From: Eledone cirrhosa | Lineage: Eukaryota | Assembly: GCA_964016885.1 (NCBI GenBank) | Contig: OZ024740.1 | Coordinates: 23,188,001 to 23,252,000 of the forward strand | DNA length: 64,000 nucleotides | Direction: 5' to 3' | In this document: piece by piece, positions 3,979 to 60,623 of the stretch | Position numbering within the stretch: position 1 is the stretch's first letter | How the letters are laid out: each line of letters begins with the position of its first letter | Position numbers and translations under genes: made by a program | Notes under the pieces: generated by a model | The model's input: the letters and a program-made list of their open reading frames with translations, nothing else | What the model was told of the DNA's origin: nothing | The model's database searches: none

Positions 3979-4325
3979 CCACCCTCTCTCTCTTTCTGTT
4001 TCTGTCTCCCTATCTCTCTCTCCTCTCTCTCTGTATTTCTGTTCTGTCTCTGTCCCACCCCCTCTCTCTCCTTCTCTTCTACTTTCCCCTTTTCTCTTTC
4101 TCTCTCTCTCTGTTAGAAAGACTAAATGTATTGTTTTGTACATCACATTGGCTTCCTGAAAGAATAGATGTAATAATAAAAAAACAAAATCGAAAGGAAG
4201 AGGAGGAGCAAAATATGACTAAAATCATTGAGAAGGTCAGAGTATATGTGGCGAAAGATCTTTGACAATTAAATAACTATCCGTTTACTAAATCAACCGA
4301 TGAATGGATAAATTACTTGATTGAT

Positions 4326-7774: not shown

Positions 7775-7845
7775 TATTTTATTATGCGCATTTCAAAAAC
7801 AAATATCATCATGGGATGATATCTGCGTTCTCATCAGATAAAATA
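7775..7845 (-). ncRNA. Type I hammerhead ribozyme (inverted pLTR copy)
   Basis: Reverse complement of 9798-9868. Confidence 0.85.
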
Positions 7846-8379
7846 GGGAGACATGATATGAAGCTTAAAAAACAATTGTGAACAGTGAAGTTTTAAATCA
7901 ACATATGAAAAATAAACTAAGATGGATATATGAGATTGAGGAAAAAACGAGGGGGGGGGGGTAGGAAAAGGTAAGGAAGAGGAAGAAAGAAAAATAAAGG
8001 ATGGTGGGCGAGGAGTATAAGAAGGAAGGATGAGAGAGGAGGAGAAATTAGTGATATAGAGAGAGGAATAGCCTTTACAACTGAGAAAACATTGTCTCAC
8101 AGAGAAATTTAAAAACCGTTGGAAGATAATAGATAATTTAAAAGATTTTGAAATTAAAAGTTAATGAGGTTTATGCATGAAGAAAAAGGAATTAAGAATA
8201 GTATTGTTAGTTGAACATACAACGAAGTTACGTTTGTTAAACGTAACTGCATTGTATGTTCACAATACCAATCTAAATCAGAAAACTATAGTTCCTATCG
8301 TAAATAACTTCTCCAATCCAATTCCTTCTGTAAATAATACTAGGTCACTTGTTAATAACTCTATTAATTTCTCTAATCG

Positions 8380-8812
8380 TAATTGTAATGGCCCTGTTAG
8401 AACTAAATGTCCTCTTAATAACCAATATCTTGATAAAAACTTAGTGTATGAAGGTATGGTTATAACTGATACTAATTCTTTTACCTATTTCGGTTCCACT
8501 TCCACTTCCTTTAAAGTTAGATTTTATAATCACAAATCGTCTCTTAAATACCAACTTAAAAGAACTAACACGGTACTCTCGGAACTCATATGGTCTTTAA
8601 AAGACAAAAATATTAACTATAACATCTCTTGGAGGAAGGTTTGCACCGCTTTTCCTTACCTAAATTCTTCCCTATCCAGAACATGTAATCTCTGCCTAGC
8701 CGAGAAATTTACCATTATATCTAATTTCGATTCTATAATAAATAGACGCACGGATTTATTTTCGCTCTGCTTGCATACATCCCATAGACCATTCCATAAA
8801 GTATACAACTAA
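8380..8812 (+). pseudogene. PLE GIY-YIG endonuclease C-terminal fragment
   Basis: CPLNNQYLDKNLVY...YFGSTSTSFKVRFYNHKSS...LSELIWSLK...CNLCLAEK...INRRTD; the ORF-track start at 8177 lies in the inverted pLTR and is not genuine. Confidence 0.88.
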
Positions 8813-22917: not shown

Positions 22918-23053
22918 TCATCATTTCTGAAGACAGCATATATATGTGAAGGTATGTATATTTCCTCTGATTGTTTGTAATATTTTTACATAGATCTATA
23001 TGATATACATACCAACACACATATATATCCTAGTAACGATCGTAAAATGATGA
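22918..23053 (+). ncRNA. Hammerhead with about 100-nt stem II and a GAAA-to-GTAA core mutation
   Basis: tcatcattt-CTGAAGA-[atatatatgtg/cacatatatat; ggtatgtata/tatacatacc]-GTAA-CGATCG-TA-aaatgatga. Confidence 0.75.
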
Positions 23054-23953
23054 TTTTTTTTAATAGAAGGAACTTGTTCTTTGTTTTTATTCACACTTCA
23101 ACTCGCTGACGGTAACATTTTTTTTTCTAGACAGTACCTTCTGCTCCATCCATCTTGCTACCGTTAACTCATGGCAAACAATCCCCCGCACCCCCCAAAA
23201 AACTCCTCTAACCTCTTACCTATCACAACCACATTACACTCACGCATTGATAAATAAATAAACAAACTCCACCACAATTTTAAAATAGCTAGGGAGCCAT
23301 TTTGGCAAGAGACAGAATTACAGCCCATAAAAGTCAACAACACAAGCCCTACACATACATACAGCAGTAAATACGTTCAATAAAATAATTATAGATGTAT
23401 ACAAAAAGGAAAATATCCCAGAAGGCAACATAAAATGTACAACTCTAATTACGTAACTGAAATAGCCAAGTGATAAAAAGGACAACCTGAAACACAACAT
23501 AACAACATCAAACACAACATAAATACGGCATAATACCAACAATATACATAACATATCATATATAAAACTTAACTTAACACACCTGCACAACATAAAATAT
23601 AGCACACACAACATATATATAATTTAACACAACTACACAAGATATACAACATAAAATATAACACACACACAACATATATATAACTTAACACACCAATACA
23701 TGACATACAACATACATAAAACAACAAACACAACAACAACACACATACAACATATATAAAACAACAAACACCAACAATACACATCATATATAAAATATAA
23801 CACACCAACAACACACAGCATGTATAAAACTTAATAAAACACAATATCATAACACTCAACATAAGTTAAATTCAACATCAAACAACCGAAACTAAAAAAT
23901 CAAGATATAAAAAAAAAACTTGAAATATACTCATCGAATATTAAAAAAAGGGC

Positions 23954-26900
23954 TAGCTGTAAACCCTATACCCTAAAAATAACTGTAAAACCCTATACCC
24001 TAAATATAACTGAAAAACTCTATACCCTAAATATGGCTGTAAAACCCTATACCCTAAATATAACTGTAAAACCCTATACCATAAATATAACTGTAAGACC
24101 CTATACCCTAAATGTAGTTGTAAAACCCTATACCCTAAATATAACTGTAAAACCCTATACCCTAAATATAACTGTAAAACCCTATACCCTAAATGTAGCT
24201 GTAAAACCCTATACCCTAAATATAACTGTAAAACCCTATCGCCTAAATATAGCTGTAAAACTCTATACCCTAAATATAACTGTAAAACCCTATACCCTAA
24301 ATATAACTGTAAAACCCTATACCCTGAATATAGCTGTAAAACTCTATACCCTAAATATAACTGTAAAACCCTATACCCTAAATATAACTGTAAAACCCTA
24401 TACCCTAAATATAACTGCAAAACCCTATACCCTAAATATAACTGTAAAACCCTATACCCTAAATATAGCTGTAAAACTCTATACCCTAAATATAACTGTA
24501 AAACCCTATACCCTAAATATAACTGTAAAACCCTATACCCTAAATATAACTGCAAAACCCTATACCCTAAATATAACTGTAAAACCCTATACCCTAAATA
24601 TATCTGTAAAACTCTATACCCTAAATATAACTGTAAAACCCTATACCCTAAATATAACTGTAAAACCCTATACCCTAAATATAACTGCAAAACCCTATAC
24701 CATAAATATAACTGTAAAACCCTATACCCTAAATATATCTGTAAAACTCTATACCCTAAATATAACTGTAAAACCCTATACGCTAAATATAACTGTAAAA
24801 CCCTATACCCTAAATATAACTGCAAAACCCTATACCATAAATATAACTGTAAAACCCTATACCCTAAATATAACTGCAAAACCCTATACCCTAAATATAA
24901 CTGTAAAACCCTATACCCTAAATATAACTGCAAAACCCTATACCCTAAATATAGCTGTAAAACCCTATACCCTAAATATAGCTGTAAAACCCTATACCCT
25001 AAATATAACTGTAAAACCCTATACCCTAAATATAGCTGTAAAACCCTATACCCTAAATATAGCTGTAAAACCCTATACCCTAAATATAACTGTAAAACCC
25101 TATACCCTAAATATAACTGTAACACCCTATACCCTAAATATAACTGCAAAACCCTATACCCTAAATATAACTGTAAAACCCTATACCCTAAATATAGCTG
25201 TAAAACCCTATACCCTAAATATAACTGTAAAACCCTATACCCTAAATATAACTGTAAAACCCTATACCCTAAATATAACTGTAAAACCCTATACCCTAAA
25301 TATAACTGCAAAACCCTATACCCTAAATATAACTGTAAAACCCTATACCCTAAATATAACTGCAAAACCCTATACCCTAAATATAACTGTAAAACCCTAT
25401 ACCCTAAATATAACTGCAAAACCCTATACCCTAAATATAGCTGTAAAACCCTATACCCTAAATATAACTGTAAAACCCTATACCCTAAATATAACTGCAA
25501 AACCCTATACCCTAAATATAGCTGTAAAACCCTATACCCTAAATATAGCTGTAAAACCCTATACCCTAAATATAACTGTAAAACCCTATACCCTAAATAT
25601 AACTGTAAAACCCTATACCCTAAATATAACTGTAAAACCCTATACCCTAAATATAGCTGTAAAACCCTATACCCTAAATATAACTGTAAAACCCTATACC
25701 CGAAATATAACTGTAAAACCCTATACCCTAAATATAACTGTAAAACCCTATACCCTAAATATAACTGTAAAACCCTATACCCTAACTATAACTGTAAAAC
25801 CCTATACCCTAAATATAGCTGTAAAACCCTATACCCTAAATATAACTGTAAAACCCTATACCCTAAATATAACTGTAAAACCCTATACCCTAAATATAGC
25901 TGTAAAACCCTATACCCGAAATATAACTGTAAAACCCTATACCCTAAATATAACTGTAAAACCCTATACCCTAAATATAACTGTAAAACCCTATACCCTA
26001 AATATAGCTGTAAAACCCTATACCCTAAATATAACTGTAAAACCCTATACCCTAAATATAACTGTAAAACCCTATACCCTAAATATAACTGTAAAACCCT
26101 ATACCCTAAATATAACTGTAAAACCCTATTCCCTAAATATAACTGTAAAACCCTATACCCTAAATATAACTGTAAAACCCTATACCCTAAATATAGCTGT
26201 AAAACCCTATACCCTAAATATAACTGTAAAACCCTATACCCTAAATATAACTGTAAAACCCTATACCCTAAATGTAGCTGTAAAACCCTATACCCTAAAT
26301 ATAACTGTAAAACCCTATCGCCTAAATATAGCTGTAAAACTCTATACCCTAAATATAACTGTAAAACCCTATACCCTAAATATAACTGTAAAACCCTATA
26401 CCCTGAATATAGCTGTAAAACTCTATACCCTAAATATAACTGTAAAACCCTATACCCTAAATATAACTGTAAAACCCTATACCCTAAATATAACTGTAAA
26501 ACCCTATACCCTAAATATAACTGCAAAACCCTATACCCTAAATATAACTGTAAAACCCTATACCCTAAATATAGCTGTAAAACTCTATACCCTAAATATA
26601 ACTGTAAAACCCTATACCCTAAATATAACTGTAAAACCCTATACCCTAAATATAACTGCAAAACCCTATACCCTAAATATAACTGTAAAACCCTATACCC
26701 TAAATATATCTGTAAAACTCTATACCCTAAATATAACTGTAAAACCCTATACCCTAAATATAACTGTAAAACCCTATACCCTAAATATAACTGCAAAACC
26801 CTATACCATAAATATAACTGTAAAACCCTATACCCTAAATATATCTGTAAAACTCTATACCCTAAATATAACTGTAAAACCCTATACGCTAAATATAACT

Positions 26901-28517
26901 GTAAAACCCTATACCCTAAATATAACTGCAAAACCCTATACCATAAATATAACTGTAAAACCCTATACCCTAAATATAACTGCAAAACCCTATACCCTAA
27001 ATATAACTGTAAAACCCTATACCCTAAATATAACTGCAAAACCCTATACCCTAAATATAGCTGTAAAACCCTATACCCTAAATATAGCTGTAAAACCCTA
27101 TACCCTAAATATAACTGTAAAACCCTATACCCTAAATATAGCTGTAAAACCCTATACCCTAAATATAGCTGTAAAACCCTATACCCTAAATATAACTGTA
27201 AAACCCTATACCCTAAATATAACTGTAACACCCTATACCCTAAATATAACTGCAAAACCCTATACCCTAAATATAACTGTAAAACCCTATACCCTAAATA
27301 TAGCTGTAAAACCCTATACCCTAAATATAACTGTAAAACCCTATACCCTAAATATAACTGTAAAACCCTATACCCTAAATATAACTGCAAAACCCTATAC
27401 CCTAAATATAACTGTAAAACCCTATACCCTAAATATAACTGCAAAACCCTATACCCTAAATATAACTGTAAAACCCTATACCCTAAATATAACTGCAAAA
27501 CCCTATACCCTAAATATAGCTGTAAAACCCTATACCCTAAATATAACTGTAAAACCCTATACCCTAAATATAACTGCAAAACCCTATACCCTAAATATAG
27601 CTGTAAAACCCTATACCCTAAATATAGCTGTAAAACCCTATACCCTAAATATAACTGTAAAACCCTATACCCTAAATATAACTGTAAAACCCTATACCCT
27701 AAATATAACTGTAAAACCCTATACCCTAAATATAGCTGTAAAACCCTATACCCTAAATATAACTGTAAAACCCTATACCCGAAATATAACTGTAAAACCC
27801 TATACCCTAAATATAACTGTAAAACCCTATACCCTAAATATAACTGTAAAACCCTATACCCTAACTATAACTGTAAAACCCTATACCCTAAATATAGCTG
27901 TAAAACCCTATACCCTAAATATAACTGTAAAACCCTATACCCTAAATATAACTGTAAAACCCTATACCCTAAATATAGCTGTAAAACCCTATACCCGAAA
28001 TATAACTGTAAAACCCTATACCCTAAATATAACTGTAAAACCCTATACCCTAAATATAACTGTAAAACCCTATACCCTAAATATAGCTGTAAAACCCTAT
28101 ACCCTAAATATAACTGTAAAACCCTATACCCTAAATATAACTGTAAAACCCTATACCCTAAATATAACTGTAAAACCCTATACCCTAAATATAACTGTAA
28201 AACCCTATTCCCTAAATATAACTGTAAAACCCTATACCCTAAATATAACTTTTAAACCCTATACCCTAAATATAACTGTAAAACCCTATACCCTAAATAT
28301 AACTGTAAAACCCTATACCCTAAATATAACTGTAAAACCCTATACCCTAAATATAACTGTAAAACCCTATACCCTAAATATAACTGTAAAACCCTATACC
28401 CTAAATATAACTGTAAAACCCTATTCCCTAAATATAACTGTAAAACCCTATACCCTAAATATAACTGTAAAACCCTATACCCTAAATATAACTGTAAAAC
28501 CCTATACCCTAAATATA
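23954..28517. repeat. 27-bp satellite (aactgtaaaaccctataccctaaatat), about 169 copies
   Basis: Directly visible; the 1501-, 515- and 597-aa ORFs are its translations. Confidence 0.98.
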
Positions 28518-28850
28518 ATTATCAACATCAACTCCTAAAAAGACCACACTGTACCTTACAATAACAACCTCAGATAAAATGCACACATATAGTATTATCA
28601 TACACTCCTCTAACATTAACCAGCAAAACCACACACACATACACACACATACATACACATACACACACAGACACACACATACACACACACACAAAGTTAA
28701 TAGCACACATACAACATTATCAAACATTTTCTAAAATCATCCAGCAACACCACACACACACACATATACACACACACTCATACGCACACAGAGATACACA
28801 CACACAGATACACACACACACACAATTGTGAAATGAATGTTCCACATTAG

Positions 28851-29873: not shown

Positions 29874-30686
<813 letters not shown>

Positions 30687-30694
30687 TATTAATA

Positions 30695-30747
30695 CATGGT
30701 CCCTGCGCAAGGATGACACGCAAATTCGTGAAGCGTTCCAAATTTCT
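30695..30747 (+). pseudogene. RNU6: U6 snRNA 3'-half retrocopy
   Basis: catggtccctgcgcaaggatgacacgcaaattcgtgaagcgttccaaatttct matches metazoan U6 from the internal stem-loop to the oligo-U end; 5' half (ACAGAGA box) absent. Confidence 0.95.
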
Positions 30748-30904
30748 ATACTTTATGTACATTATGAAACTTTTTTTTAAAAGAATTCTCCCTCTGATTT
30801 TTTTCAATGTCATCTTTTCAATAATGTCACTTTGACGAATCAAAAAAAGGATAACAAAATAAAAACAGACCCTTAAATATATTTTTCGTGCTATTTCCAA
30901 CTTC
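30748..30904 (+). mobile_element. Post-hammerhead 3' tail of an HHR element, fused to U6
   Basis: Colinear homology with 56539-56687 (atactttat...aatgtcactttgacga...gtgctatttcca-cttc). Confidence 0.85.
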
Positions 30905-30923
30905 ACCTTTTATCGATCTCTAT

Positions 30924-31074
30924 ATATAATTAAATATAATAAAGAGAGATAAACAGGGATATATACATATATGTGTTCAAATCATAAGGGACCCTAATGA
31001 ATCTGGTCCCTTATGATTTGAACACATATATGTATATATCCCTGTTTATCTCTCTTTATTATGTTTAATTATAT
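30924..31074. repeat. 70-bp near-perfect inverted repeat with 11-nt spacer
   Basis: Arms 30924-30993 and 31005-31074, one mismatch. Confidence 0.95.
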
Positions 31075-56272: not shown

Positions 56273-56495
56273 ATGTAAAAGGTAAACAGATATAACAGCA
56301 CAATCGATCCCGGATTCAATCGGGGGGTAACCACAGTAAGTAAGGTACTCAATATATAGCAGAGTATAAATATCCATTCAGTTCTCGTCCTGTAGAAGCC
56401 ATTTCTCTATTAAATATATATATATTTAAATCTATATAATATTAATTTTTAATCTAAAATCTTTAGTTTTTAATTCTTCTTAATTCTTTTTAATT

Positions 56496-56547
56496 AACAT
56501 TTGATAAGATGCATTTTACTAATACATCGAAACCGGTTATACTTTAT
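56496..56547 (+). ncRNA. Hammerhead with U3-A8 core; 3' tail runs to 56687
   Basis: TTGATAA (56501-07)-gatgcatt ttact aatacatc-GAAA-CCGG-TT|atactttat; stem I poorly paired in this copy. Confidence 0.7.
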
Positions 56548-56686
56548 ATACGTTATCTACATTATAAAACACTTTTTTAAAAAACAATTGCCCCTCTCAA
56601 TTTTTTTCAATAATGTCACTTTGACGACAGGAAAATAAAAAAGAAAAACAAACCCTAAAATATATTTCCTGTGCTATTTCCAGCTT

Positions 56687-56774
<88 letters not shown>

Positions 56775-56881: not shown

Positions 56882-58640
56882 TAAATACGCTTTTAGCCTC
56901 GACGTTGTCTCCCTCTACACTACAGTCCCCGCTCACCCAGCTGTCGATTTATTGACGGACTGCGTGGTCGCAGAGAACATCCACTGCTACGGCCTCCACC
57001 CGACGGACATACACCAGCTTTTGTCCTTCACAGTAGACAACACGTACTTCACCTTCCACCACCACACAAACAGACAGACAACAGGATTACCCATGGGATC
57101 CAGCCTTTCGGGCCTGCTGGCCATCACCTACATGAACCAGCTAGAATGCCGAGCCCTCAACCACCTGCCATTCCCATGCCTTCTTCACCCGATATGTAGA
57201 TGACATACTCATCCTTACATCATCCCGTGAGGAGGCAGAGAAAATATACACAACATTCTCCAGCATGGACGCCAGTATAAAGTTCAGCATGGAACACCCC
57301 GATGACCGCGGATCCCTATCCCTACTGGACTTCCAACTCAGGGTAACAGAGGAAGGCAACATCCACACCTGCTTCTATAAAAAATCCGCCAGCAGGCACC
57401 TGTTCGTACATTTCAGATCGGCCCTCCCACTCGGTGCCAAGTTCGGATACATAAAGAACGAACTGGCACGTATCAAGAACAAATGCACCGACGCCAGAGA
57501 CCGAGACACACACACCACACATTTCCTGGAAGTACTCAAACTGAACGGGATACACGACATCCACCACAAACCGTGCCAGAAAGAACAGAGGACACCACAC
57601 CCGAGGCACTAACACTTGCTTCCTGAAGCTCCCACACTTCAGTGAAGAAACAACAACAGCCATCCGCAGAGCATCAGACGAGAGGGACTGGATATCCAAC
57701 TGGCCCACTCGGGTCCTTCTCTGCGCTGACGGCTAGCCAAGAGACACTCCACCAGACATGACAACTGCTGCAGACTAGCCAACTGCCCCATCAACGACAC
57801 AGACCTATGCCACCAGGCTTACGTAGTATACAGACTAGAGTGTGACAAATGCAACAACTTCTACGTAGGTAGCACCACCAGACCACTCCACATAAGAATA
57901 AAAGAACACCTCAATACTAAGGCTTCCTCATTTAAGAAACACCTAGTTAAATGCAAAAACACCGATAAAAACATAACAGTTAGGATAGAAACTAAGGAAA
58001 GAAACCTCGGCCATCTTAGAATTAAGGAAGCACTTATTATAGATAAAACACATCCACCAATCAATAATAGACTAGAACTCAACACCCAATTTATAACCTG
58101 ATAGGGCCTCTAGCCCCATATTTACACACCCCACACACACGCACGCGCACACACACACGCTTACACCTCCACTTATTCTCTCTCACACATACACACACAA
58201 AACCAGTTCTAACACCAGATAACACCTACCCCCCACTTTTACGATTAGACCTATCTTCCCACACTCACACACACACACCGACATACCTACACCTTCATGC
58301 ATTCTCCCACACACATATACAGGCACGTATATAAAATAAAAAATAAAAAAAATAAAAAAACCCTAAACAAACCCCTCTTAAAGGGAGACTACTCTTTATC
58401 CACCTAATTTTAATTCTTTGATATTAGAGTTAGAACAGATACTCTATACTATTTCCGGTCAGCATGGCTTGGCTAGAGATTTAAGACGCTGGTTTGAGAC
58501 CTTTATTTCCCTCCGAAGAAGAGATATTATCTCGAAAATTAAGGACATTTAAATAAATTCAAGGTGAAAGACGAATTCTCAACAATATCTTTTACTATTG
58601 CATTCTTTTTTCTATGCCCATACCTGCATTGTTTGGGCCT
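56882..58640 (+). mobile_element. 5'-truncated Penelope-like element: RT plus C-terminal GIY-YIG pseudogene (to 58101) and 3' UTR
   Basis: FSLDVVSLYT, QTTGLPMGSSLSGLLA, RYVDDI, IKFSMEHP, LSLLD, FYKK, CRLANCPINDTDLC, VVYRLECDKCNNFYVGSTTRPLHIRIKEH, IKEALII..HPPIN; frameshifts and a stop. Confidence 0.93.
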
Positions 58641-60394: not shown

Positions 60395-60452
<58 letters not shown>

Positions 60453-60454
60453 TT

Positions 60455-60623
60455 TAATATAGAAAAGGCTTCTACAGTACTAGAACTGTTTCATTTCCTG
60501 CTGATTTCTCCAAAATGAAACAGATCTAGTCCTGTATAAGCCTTTCTATATTAACTATTTATACTCTGCATTGTATTGAGTACCTTACTTACTGTGGTTA
60601 CCCCCGATTGAACCCGGGATAAA

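Follow-up and report, generated by a model that had tools for sequence, protein, structure and literature searches.

The 3-Gb genome of the animal Eledone cirrhosa contains about 28 apparent genomic fossils in which the 3' end of a small nuclear RNA (snRNA), U6 or U6atac, is joined to a Penelope-like repeat at, or close to, the predicted cut of a hammerhead ribozyme. Judging from the junctions, the RNA of these elements was very likely cleaved in vivo, and the fossils probably record a hammerhead cut, followed by RtcB-type ligation of the product to the snRNA and then by reverse transcription. At the sequence level, support for this scenario comes from the positions of the junctions, the number of terminal T residues, the lack of added bases, the specificity for certain snRNAs, the inverted duplications and the presence of an RtcB gene.

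One of these loci lies in the stretch of 64,000 nucleotides analysed here (contig OZ024740.1, positions 23,188,001 to 23,252,000 of the forward strand; hereafter, the window), where an earlier note, made from the letters alone, had recognised the 3' half of U6, ending at 30747 and inserted beside a (TA/CA)n tract. Both observations hold. The Rfam model of U6 (RF00026) matches 30644-30747 with 52 bits, against a gathering score of 44; alignment to a U6 gene from the tandem array (L002) places the actual homology, nucleotides 55-107 of U6, at 30695-30747 on the plus strand; and a (TC)n(TA)n(CA)n microsatellite (30587-30687, no strand assigned) occupies the 5' side of the insertion. This 5'-truncated retrocopy differs from the array gene by 2 mismatches in 51 aligned positions and one T-to-C change in the T end, and its 3' end is complete, with five T positions including the one mutated to C. 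Directly after U6 follows a tail of ~160 nt (30748-30907, plus strand), a segment of the terminal repeat of one element family (A) downstream of its hammerhead cut; this tail is a one-unit variant from a subfamily with an internal duplication and is 89-91% identical to the 19 nearest fetched family copies, which carry 1-5 copies of a 9-nt unit. The chimera is directly followed by a perfect palindrome (30905-31070, ~80 nt per arm) that is probably an inverted insertion of another element.

A second family A copy in the window consists of a minimal hammerhead core at 56501-56538 (plus strand; U3-A8 variant with a stem II of 4 bp, a palindromic stem III and a stem I of 2 bp; predicted cut 56538|56539) and a two-unit segment downstream of the cut at 56539-56690 (plus strand). 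The core at this site had been correctly described as lying directly upstream of the tail, whereas the remark that its stem I is decayed was mistaken, a stem I of 2 bp being the family state in 30 aligned copies, in most of which the hammerhead core is conserved. The proposed colinearity of the chimera tail with 56539-56687 is borne out by a match at 75% identity (30743-30907 versus 56543-56690), but the 56.5-kb copy does not belong to the parent subfamily, and the ungapped alignment to it is shifted in register, with the join 9 nt downstream of the cut, because in family A the cut is followed by repeats of the 9-nt unit, of which the chimera has one fewer. Offsets 0 and +9 (cut+1 and cut+10) score alike at the window join (10/11 each); thus, the initial description of a join exactly at the cut, with only a 1-nt T ambiguity, survives as a fit to cut+1 but not as the only fit, and because of the 9-nt repeat, this junction by itself is insufficient for the claim. 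A join at cut+1 would fit the existence of one-unit family A variants, of which a genome pattern search detected 84 exact copies, and this is the likely position for the window locus. Alternatively, the class may be genuine with the window locus as an off-cut exception, in which U6 was ligated to a trimmed fragment, or a template switch took place, 9 nt downstream of the cut. Most two-unit copies, when aligned without gaps, indeed give +9, and only four of the 19 nearest relatives carry a single unit right after an intact core, but these one-unit variants are present in the chimera's own subfamily, three further family A chimeras (L246, L249 and the U6atac locus L372) begin at the identical unit boundary, and the loci without repeat ties are all at cut+1 except for L243, so that off-cut joining at the window locus appears unlikely.

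Family A includes ~1,800 first-look candidates genome-wide, and its 5'-truncated and inverted forms, variable 3' tails and AT-rich targets are those of a Penelope-like element. At one locus (L216), two inverted family A repeats flank frameshifted ORF pieces in which what we take to be RT-like and GIY-YIG-like motifs were discerned by eye; none of the three pieces produced a Pfam match at E<=0.01, and two tandem family A copies on C18 contain no ORF of at least 120 amino acids. Rfam reported no hammerhead at family A among the best 150 of the 235 window matches. Elsewhere, the window contains a GIY-YIG-like ORF (8168-8812) with a Pfam E of 0.007 and a fragment of an RT (57145-57612, E 0.003), neither of them tied to family A; family D fragments at 56307-56410 and 60424-60620, with a family D cut site (56394|56395) that precedes the family A core by ~140 nt; many additional hammerhead-like cores, which belong to other families, at 4228, 7791-7837, 9806, 10540, 11387, 21498, 30277, 37301, 39011, 51108, 59036 and 60170; and a tandem array of a 27-nt unit that spans ~4.5 kb with 95% matches (23957-28518).

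Dispersed U6 ends and their partners were collected genome-wide by an exact-pattern census. By T number, this census comprises 35 five-T matches at 34 loci, 6 matches with no more than four T, 15 six-T matches and 7 with at least seven T and a base other than A after them; copies with seven T and then A fall outside it. The loci were fetched in full, and removal of an array copy (L119) and the gene-like L124 and L125 left 59; looser patterns, applied to five-T copies only, yielded 38 more regions, and a probable non-U6 sequence (L248) and a LINE-tail copy with an internal join (L087) were excluded from the counts. Four kinds of partners were found: the last 70 nt of a LINE, the 5' starts of SINEs, internal LINE or SINE positions, and Penelope-like repeats. 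The LINE tail is the commonest partner (L071, L074, L076 and ~20 more; L134-L163), with variable T and extra bases; it has 2,374 exact copies genome-wide, and about one-third of 30 sampled copies are truncated at the spot of the U6 joins, which suggests a hot spot for reverse transcriptase stops or RNA cuts. A single internal LINE junction is common to three U6 chimeras (L075, L224 and L232, with L220, L223 and L231 nearby) and possibly marks a second site-specific RNA cut. The 5' starts of tRNA-type SINEs are fused, often with extra bases, to U6 (L079, L083, L094, L096, L099, L102, L105, L113, L117 and L120) and, once, to a full-length U2 (L358); these chimeras probably reflect a second, ligase-independent route in this genome. 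The U6 genes form a tandem array on C19 (31.78-31.84 Mb, period ~1.8-2.0 kb), and the U2 genes form another one on C3 (307.34-307.46 Mb, period ~2.2 kb).

With Penelope-like partners, 25 U6 loci (the window locus included) were placed against an intact copy of the respective family, 12 families altogether: A (the window locus, L246, L249), B (L072, L078), C (L077, L244), D (L080, L093, L098), E (L084), F (L089/90, L091, L226, L252), G (L100), H (L230, L234, L250), I (L228, L239), J (L133, L243), K (L132) and M (L082, in an inverted arm), with the placements in families G and M each relying on a single reference copy. The best ungapped offset is 0, that is, the first base after the cut, for 24 of the 25 loci, uniquely so in 19 and tied with +8 or +9 by tandem repeats in five; at the remaining locus (L243), the join is at -1 or, alternatively, a single C was added. 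The test suggested at the outset, namely multiple loci and families with junctions clustering at N-U-H|+1, therefore came out in favour of the proposal, and its opposite, joins scattered along the elements, was not seen among the 25 placed loci of the 12 families. Several Penelope-like-looking tails (L219, L227, L247 and L251) were left unplaced, as were ~eight other tails without a match, so that off-cut partners from unsampled families may be hidden among them. The variety of the partner families and the differing 5' truncations of U6 indicate that the loci do not derive by amplification from one chimera, and at L072, L089/90, L091, L228 and L230, inverted duplications, a trait of Penelope-type insertion, take in the U6 part.

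The elements of the minimal type I hammerhead core (C3-G8 or U3-A8, G12-A15.1, U16.1-H17) are found in these families, with U3-A8 in families A, B, D, F, G, H, I, J, K and M, and C3-G8 combined with a long stem II in family E. In family C, six of six local copies (L031/L098, L283, L042, L045, L208) carry a C where the core has A at position 13, and, despite this C13 core, two U6 captures are at the predicted cut of this family. Stem I ranges over 2-9 bp, from 2 bp in families A, G and K to as many as 9 bp, covarying between copies, in family E; from sequence, ribozyme activity is not obvious for the C13 core or for the 2-bp stems I. For B, E, H and M, recognition of the U6 join preceded that of the full core, which emerged only once long stems II or III were allowed; at family H, Rfam gives a hammerhead with E=4 only. 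The family E hammerhead is present in the window at 22920-23060 (cut 23044|23045) and also at L316 and L052, with a stem II of ~100-110 nt that has intron-like GT...AG ends.

The concentration of joins at the cut is not a general property of the copies of these families. Among 136 incidental copies without U6, 116 read through the cut, 19 start downstream and a single one breaks within -4..+3 of it, compared with the U6 loci (Fisher p 2.5e-26; the background count is approximate, with palindrome arms counted apart and with the rows for A (5, two inside chimera L249), D2 (63, microsatellite-swamped) and I (0) left out). Such read-through argues against the view that no cleavage occurred and that the reverse transcriptase stalled at the folded hammerhead and switched to U6 via T-rich microhomology, the match to the cut being a by-product of RNA structure. 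The joins in families H and I do share two T with the U6 end, and minimal ribozymes are weak in vitro, according to PMC4209133, but no T is shared where the cut follows A or C (families B, C, D, E, F, G, J, K and M), and the single-base precision extends over 12 families with a stem I of 2-9 bp and a stem III that varies from a 4-nt palindrome to ~60 nt; stalling and switching is, thus, very unlikely. Juxtaposition at the DNA level, by a transposon targeting U6 genes or by chance insertion beside a U6 pseudogene, is even less probable. Transposons that target snRNA genes exist (PMC8869645), but this explanation is already contradicted by the U6 copies, which are dispersed, often 5'-truncated, always in one sense and devoid of the 3' flank of the gene, and by the elements, which are cut at the ribozyme site rather than at their terminus, in 12 families and with two snRNAs.

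The joined ends differ from those of other U6 chimeras. In the exact-pattern census, all 13 hammerhead partners follow five T, compared with 20 of 41 other resolved partners (p 7e-4); put differently, the hammerhead class makes up 13 of the 34 five-T loci and 0 of the 25 other loci (p 3e-4), a contrast with a blind spot because many cut products begin with A and copies with seven T and then A are outside the census. With LINE tails, the T number varies from 2 to 17. Extra bases at the join occur in one of the 25 hammerhead chimeras as against 14 of 22 LINE-tail chimeras (p 1.5e-5), the latter scored with the template of one LINE copy. U6atac behaves similarly: the 15 matches include two gene-like ones (L370, L375), and among the 13 dispersed copies, three are at cut+1, in families A (L372, with four T and a C), B and H; in another copy, truncated at the 3' end, the join to family H lies ~14 nt away from the cut and shows microhomology. 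By comparison, none of the 22 dispersed U2 copies is at a cut (25 loci with the gene-like L345, L346 and L360 removed; p 0.044 versus U6atac and 0.016 versus U6), a control that is weakened by the presence of only three dispersed U2 copies with a complete 3' end, one of them fused, via 6 extra bases, to the start of a SINE and another located upstream of a hammerhead core.

The same observations bear on an alternative in which the RNA is cut in vivo but not ligated; instead, on reaching the 5' end left by the cut, the reverse transcriptase would continue by an end-to-end jump to U6 or U6atac, whose 3' ends are free and single-stranded, a jump of which R2 reverse transcriptase is capable. Such a jump predicts an identical junction position. 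Family F copies without an snRNA break at cut+1 in ~10 of 30 and in 8 of 13 sites chosen for non-A at -1, by eye, so that run-off of the reverse transcriptase at the cut end may occur as well, although, lacking counts at neighbouring positions, these breaks show neither enrichment nor mechanism. Furthermore, the SINE 5' starts and the LINE truncation hot spot serve as partners of U6 and U2, often with extra bases, and the 3' end of U2, which is Sm-bound and structured, may just be a poor acceptor. At one family F cut+1 (L343, G000:C1:300261100-300262300, minus strand 233-395), the directly joined sequence is ~160 nt of 18S rRNA (E 2.7e-5, below gathering), another type of captured RNA, which fits either a jump or ligation of any cyclic-phosphate end. 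Against jumping stand the capture at cuts of U6atac, a scarce RNA, and not of U2, the T number fixed at five with hammerhead partners but variable with LINE tails, the rarity of non-U6 copies that end at the cut and the near absence of extra bases. Run-off of R2 usually adds untemplated bases, as reported in PMC3774820. End-to-end template jumping is, accordingly, disfavoured and rather improbable, and ligation is the probable mode of joining. The earlier idea that U6 was ligated to self-cleaved RNA gains from the clustering at cut sites and from the like behaviour of U6atac but not U2, whereas the ligation itself, RtcB as the joining enzyme and a cyclic phosphate on U6 of this animal are what we infer.

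According to the ligation scenario, the element RNA would be cleaved by its hammerhead in cells of the germ line, an RtcB-type ligase would join the cyclic-phosphate end of the snRNA to the 5'-OH of the element, the element reverse transcriptase, starting in the tail, would cross the join and run into U6, often truncating, and the fused RNA would be copied into AT-rich DNA. Human mature U6 is described as ending in five U and a cyclic phosphate, the U6atac 3' end bears one too, and ends of this kind are joined by RtcB to a 5'-OH (PMC6789731); hammerhead products are RtcB substrates in vitro (PMC7229834); and in the one active element studied, from Anolis, reverse transcription begins at an internal position of the RNA that lies downstream of the hammerhead, cleavage is not required in vitro, and none of the reads ended at the cut site (PMC11167929). 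In E. cirrhosa, an RtcB gene is present on C6, with five exon matches over the cut-off; a search for Usb1 (PF09749) gave no match, but the controls were equally unmatched. Since most ordinary copies extend across the cut, the templates of these would have been uncut or re-closed. PMC4209133 proposed, without in-vivo evidence, ligation into circles; the captures would be compatible with such a circular template but are no proof of it. There is perhaps an even chance that Penelope-like elements normally use the hammerhead to cut their RNA in vivo and that RtcB, the tRNA ligase of the host, re-closes or circularises the template, the U6 and U6atac captures being a by-product that arises when the cyclic phosphate of an snRNA wins the 5'-OH; in that case, snRNA joins would be a general, base-level assay of in-vivo cuts that needs genome sequence alone.

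The chimeras combine features of several known systems. They resemble the RtcB-dependent U6/LINE-1 chimeras of mammals (PMC6789731) in the complete 3' end of U6, the short T run, the absence of added bases, the 3' part of a retroelement as the partner and the additional use of U6atac; joining in mammals needs a cyclic phosphate and a 5'-OH. The junctions of mammalian L1 chimeras are scattered, with no specific sequence, whereas those of E. cirrhosa pin the end of the partner to a single base, at the predicted cut of the element's own ribozyme; further differences are a Penelope-like partner, a non-mammalian host and a ligation that is inferred rather than demonstrated. The ribozymes are akin to the minimal hammerheads of Penelope-like elements (PMC4209133, PMC11167929), with a type I core in the terminal repeat, U3-A8, a palindromic stem III, a short stem I (PMC4209133 gives 2 bp for the D. 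virilis element, the length also seen in family A) and many families per genome; unlike those, several families described here have long stems II or III, and one has C13. The available text of these two papers reports no evidence of in-vivo cleavage and no snRNA chimeras. As in non-LTR retrozymes (PMC7229834), the hammerhead-cut ends would serve as RtcB substrates, which was shown in vitro for retrozymes, but retrozymes are tandem non-autonomous repeats that self-circularise, whereas here a host snRNA is captured; there is no tandem retrozyme array at the window locus. In R2 (PMC3774820, PMC4494074), a ribozyme sets the template's 5' end, as here, but R2 junctions often contain untemplated bases. 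The SINEU elements (same sources) likewise have snRNA sequence at the 5' end of a retroelement but are amplified families headed by U1 or U2, whereas the chimeras described here are independent one-off events with differing partners.

Full-text literature searches, most subscription papers and supplements aside, turned up papers on each half of the observation but no account of snRNAs joined at Penelope-like hammerhead cuts. Retro-chimeras of U6 are thus familiar, and what would be new is the site-specific form at the hammerhead cuts of Penelope-like elements. The finding bears on whether and why the weak hammerheads of animal Penelope-like elements cut in vivo: the joins are probably a heritable record of cut ends that were present in the germ line and available to a ligase, in 12 families. 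Capture of U6 by ligation would thereby be extended beyond mammalian L1 and made site-specific, and the 3' flanks of U6 and U6atac copies offer a cheap screen of any animal genome for ribozyme cut sites. If this interpretation is true, snRNA joins reveal ribozymes that are missed by descriptors, such as those with long stems II or III, a 2-bp stem I or a C13 core.
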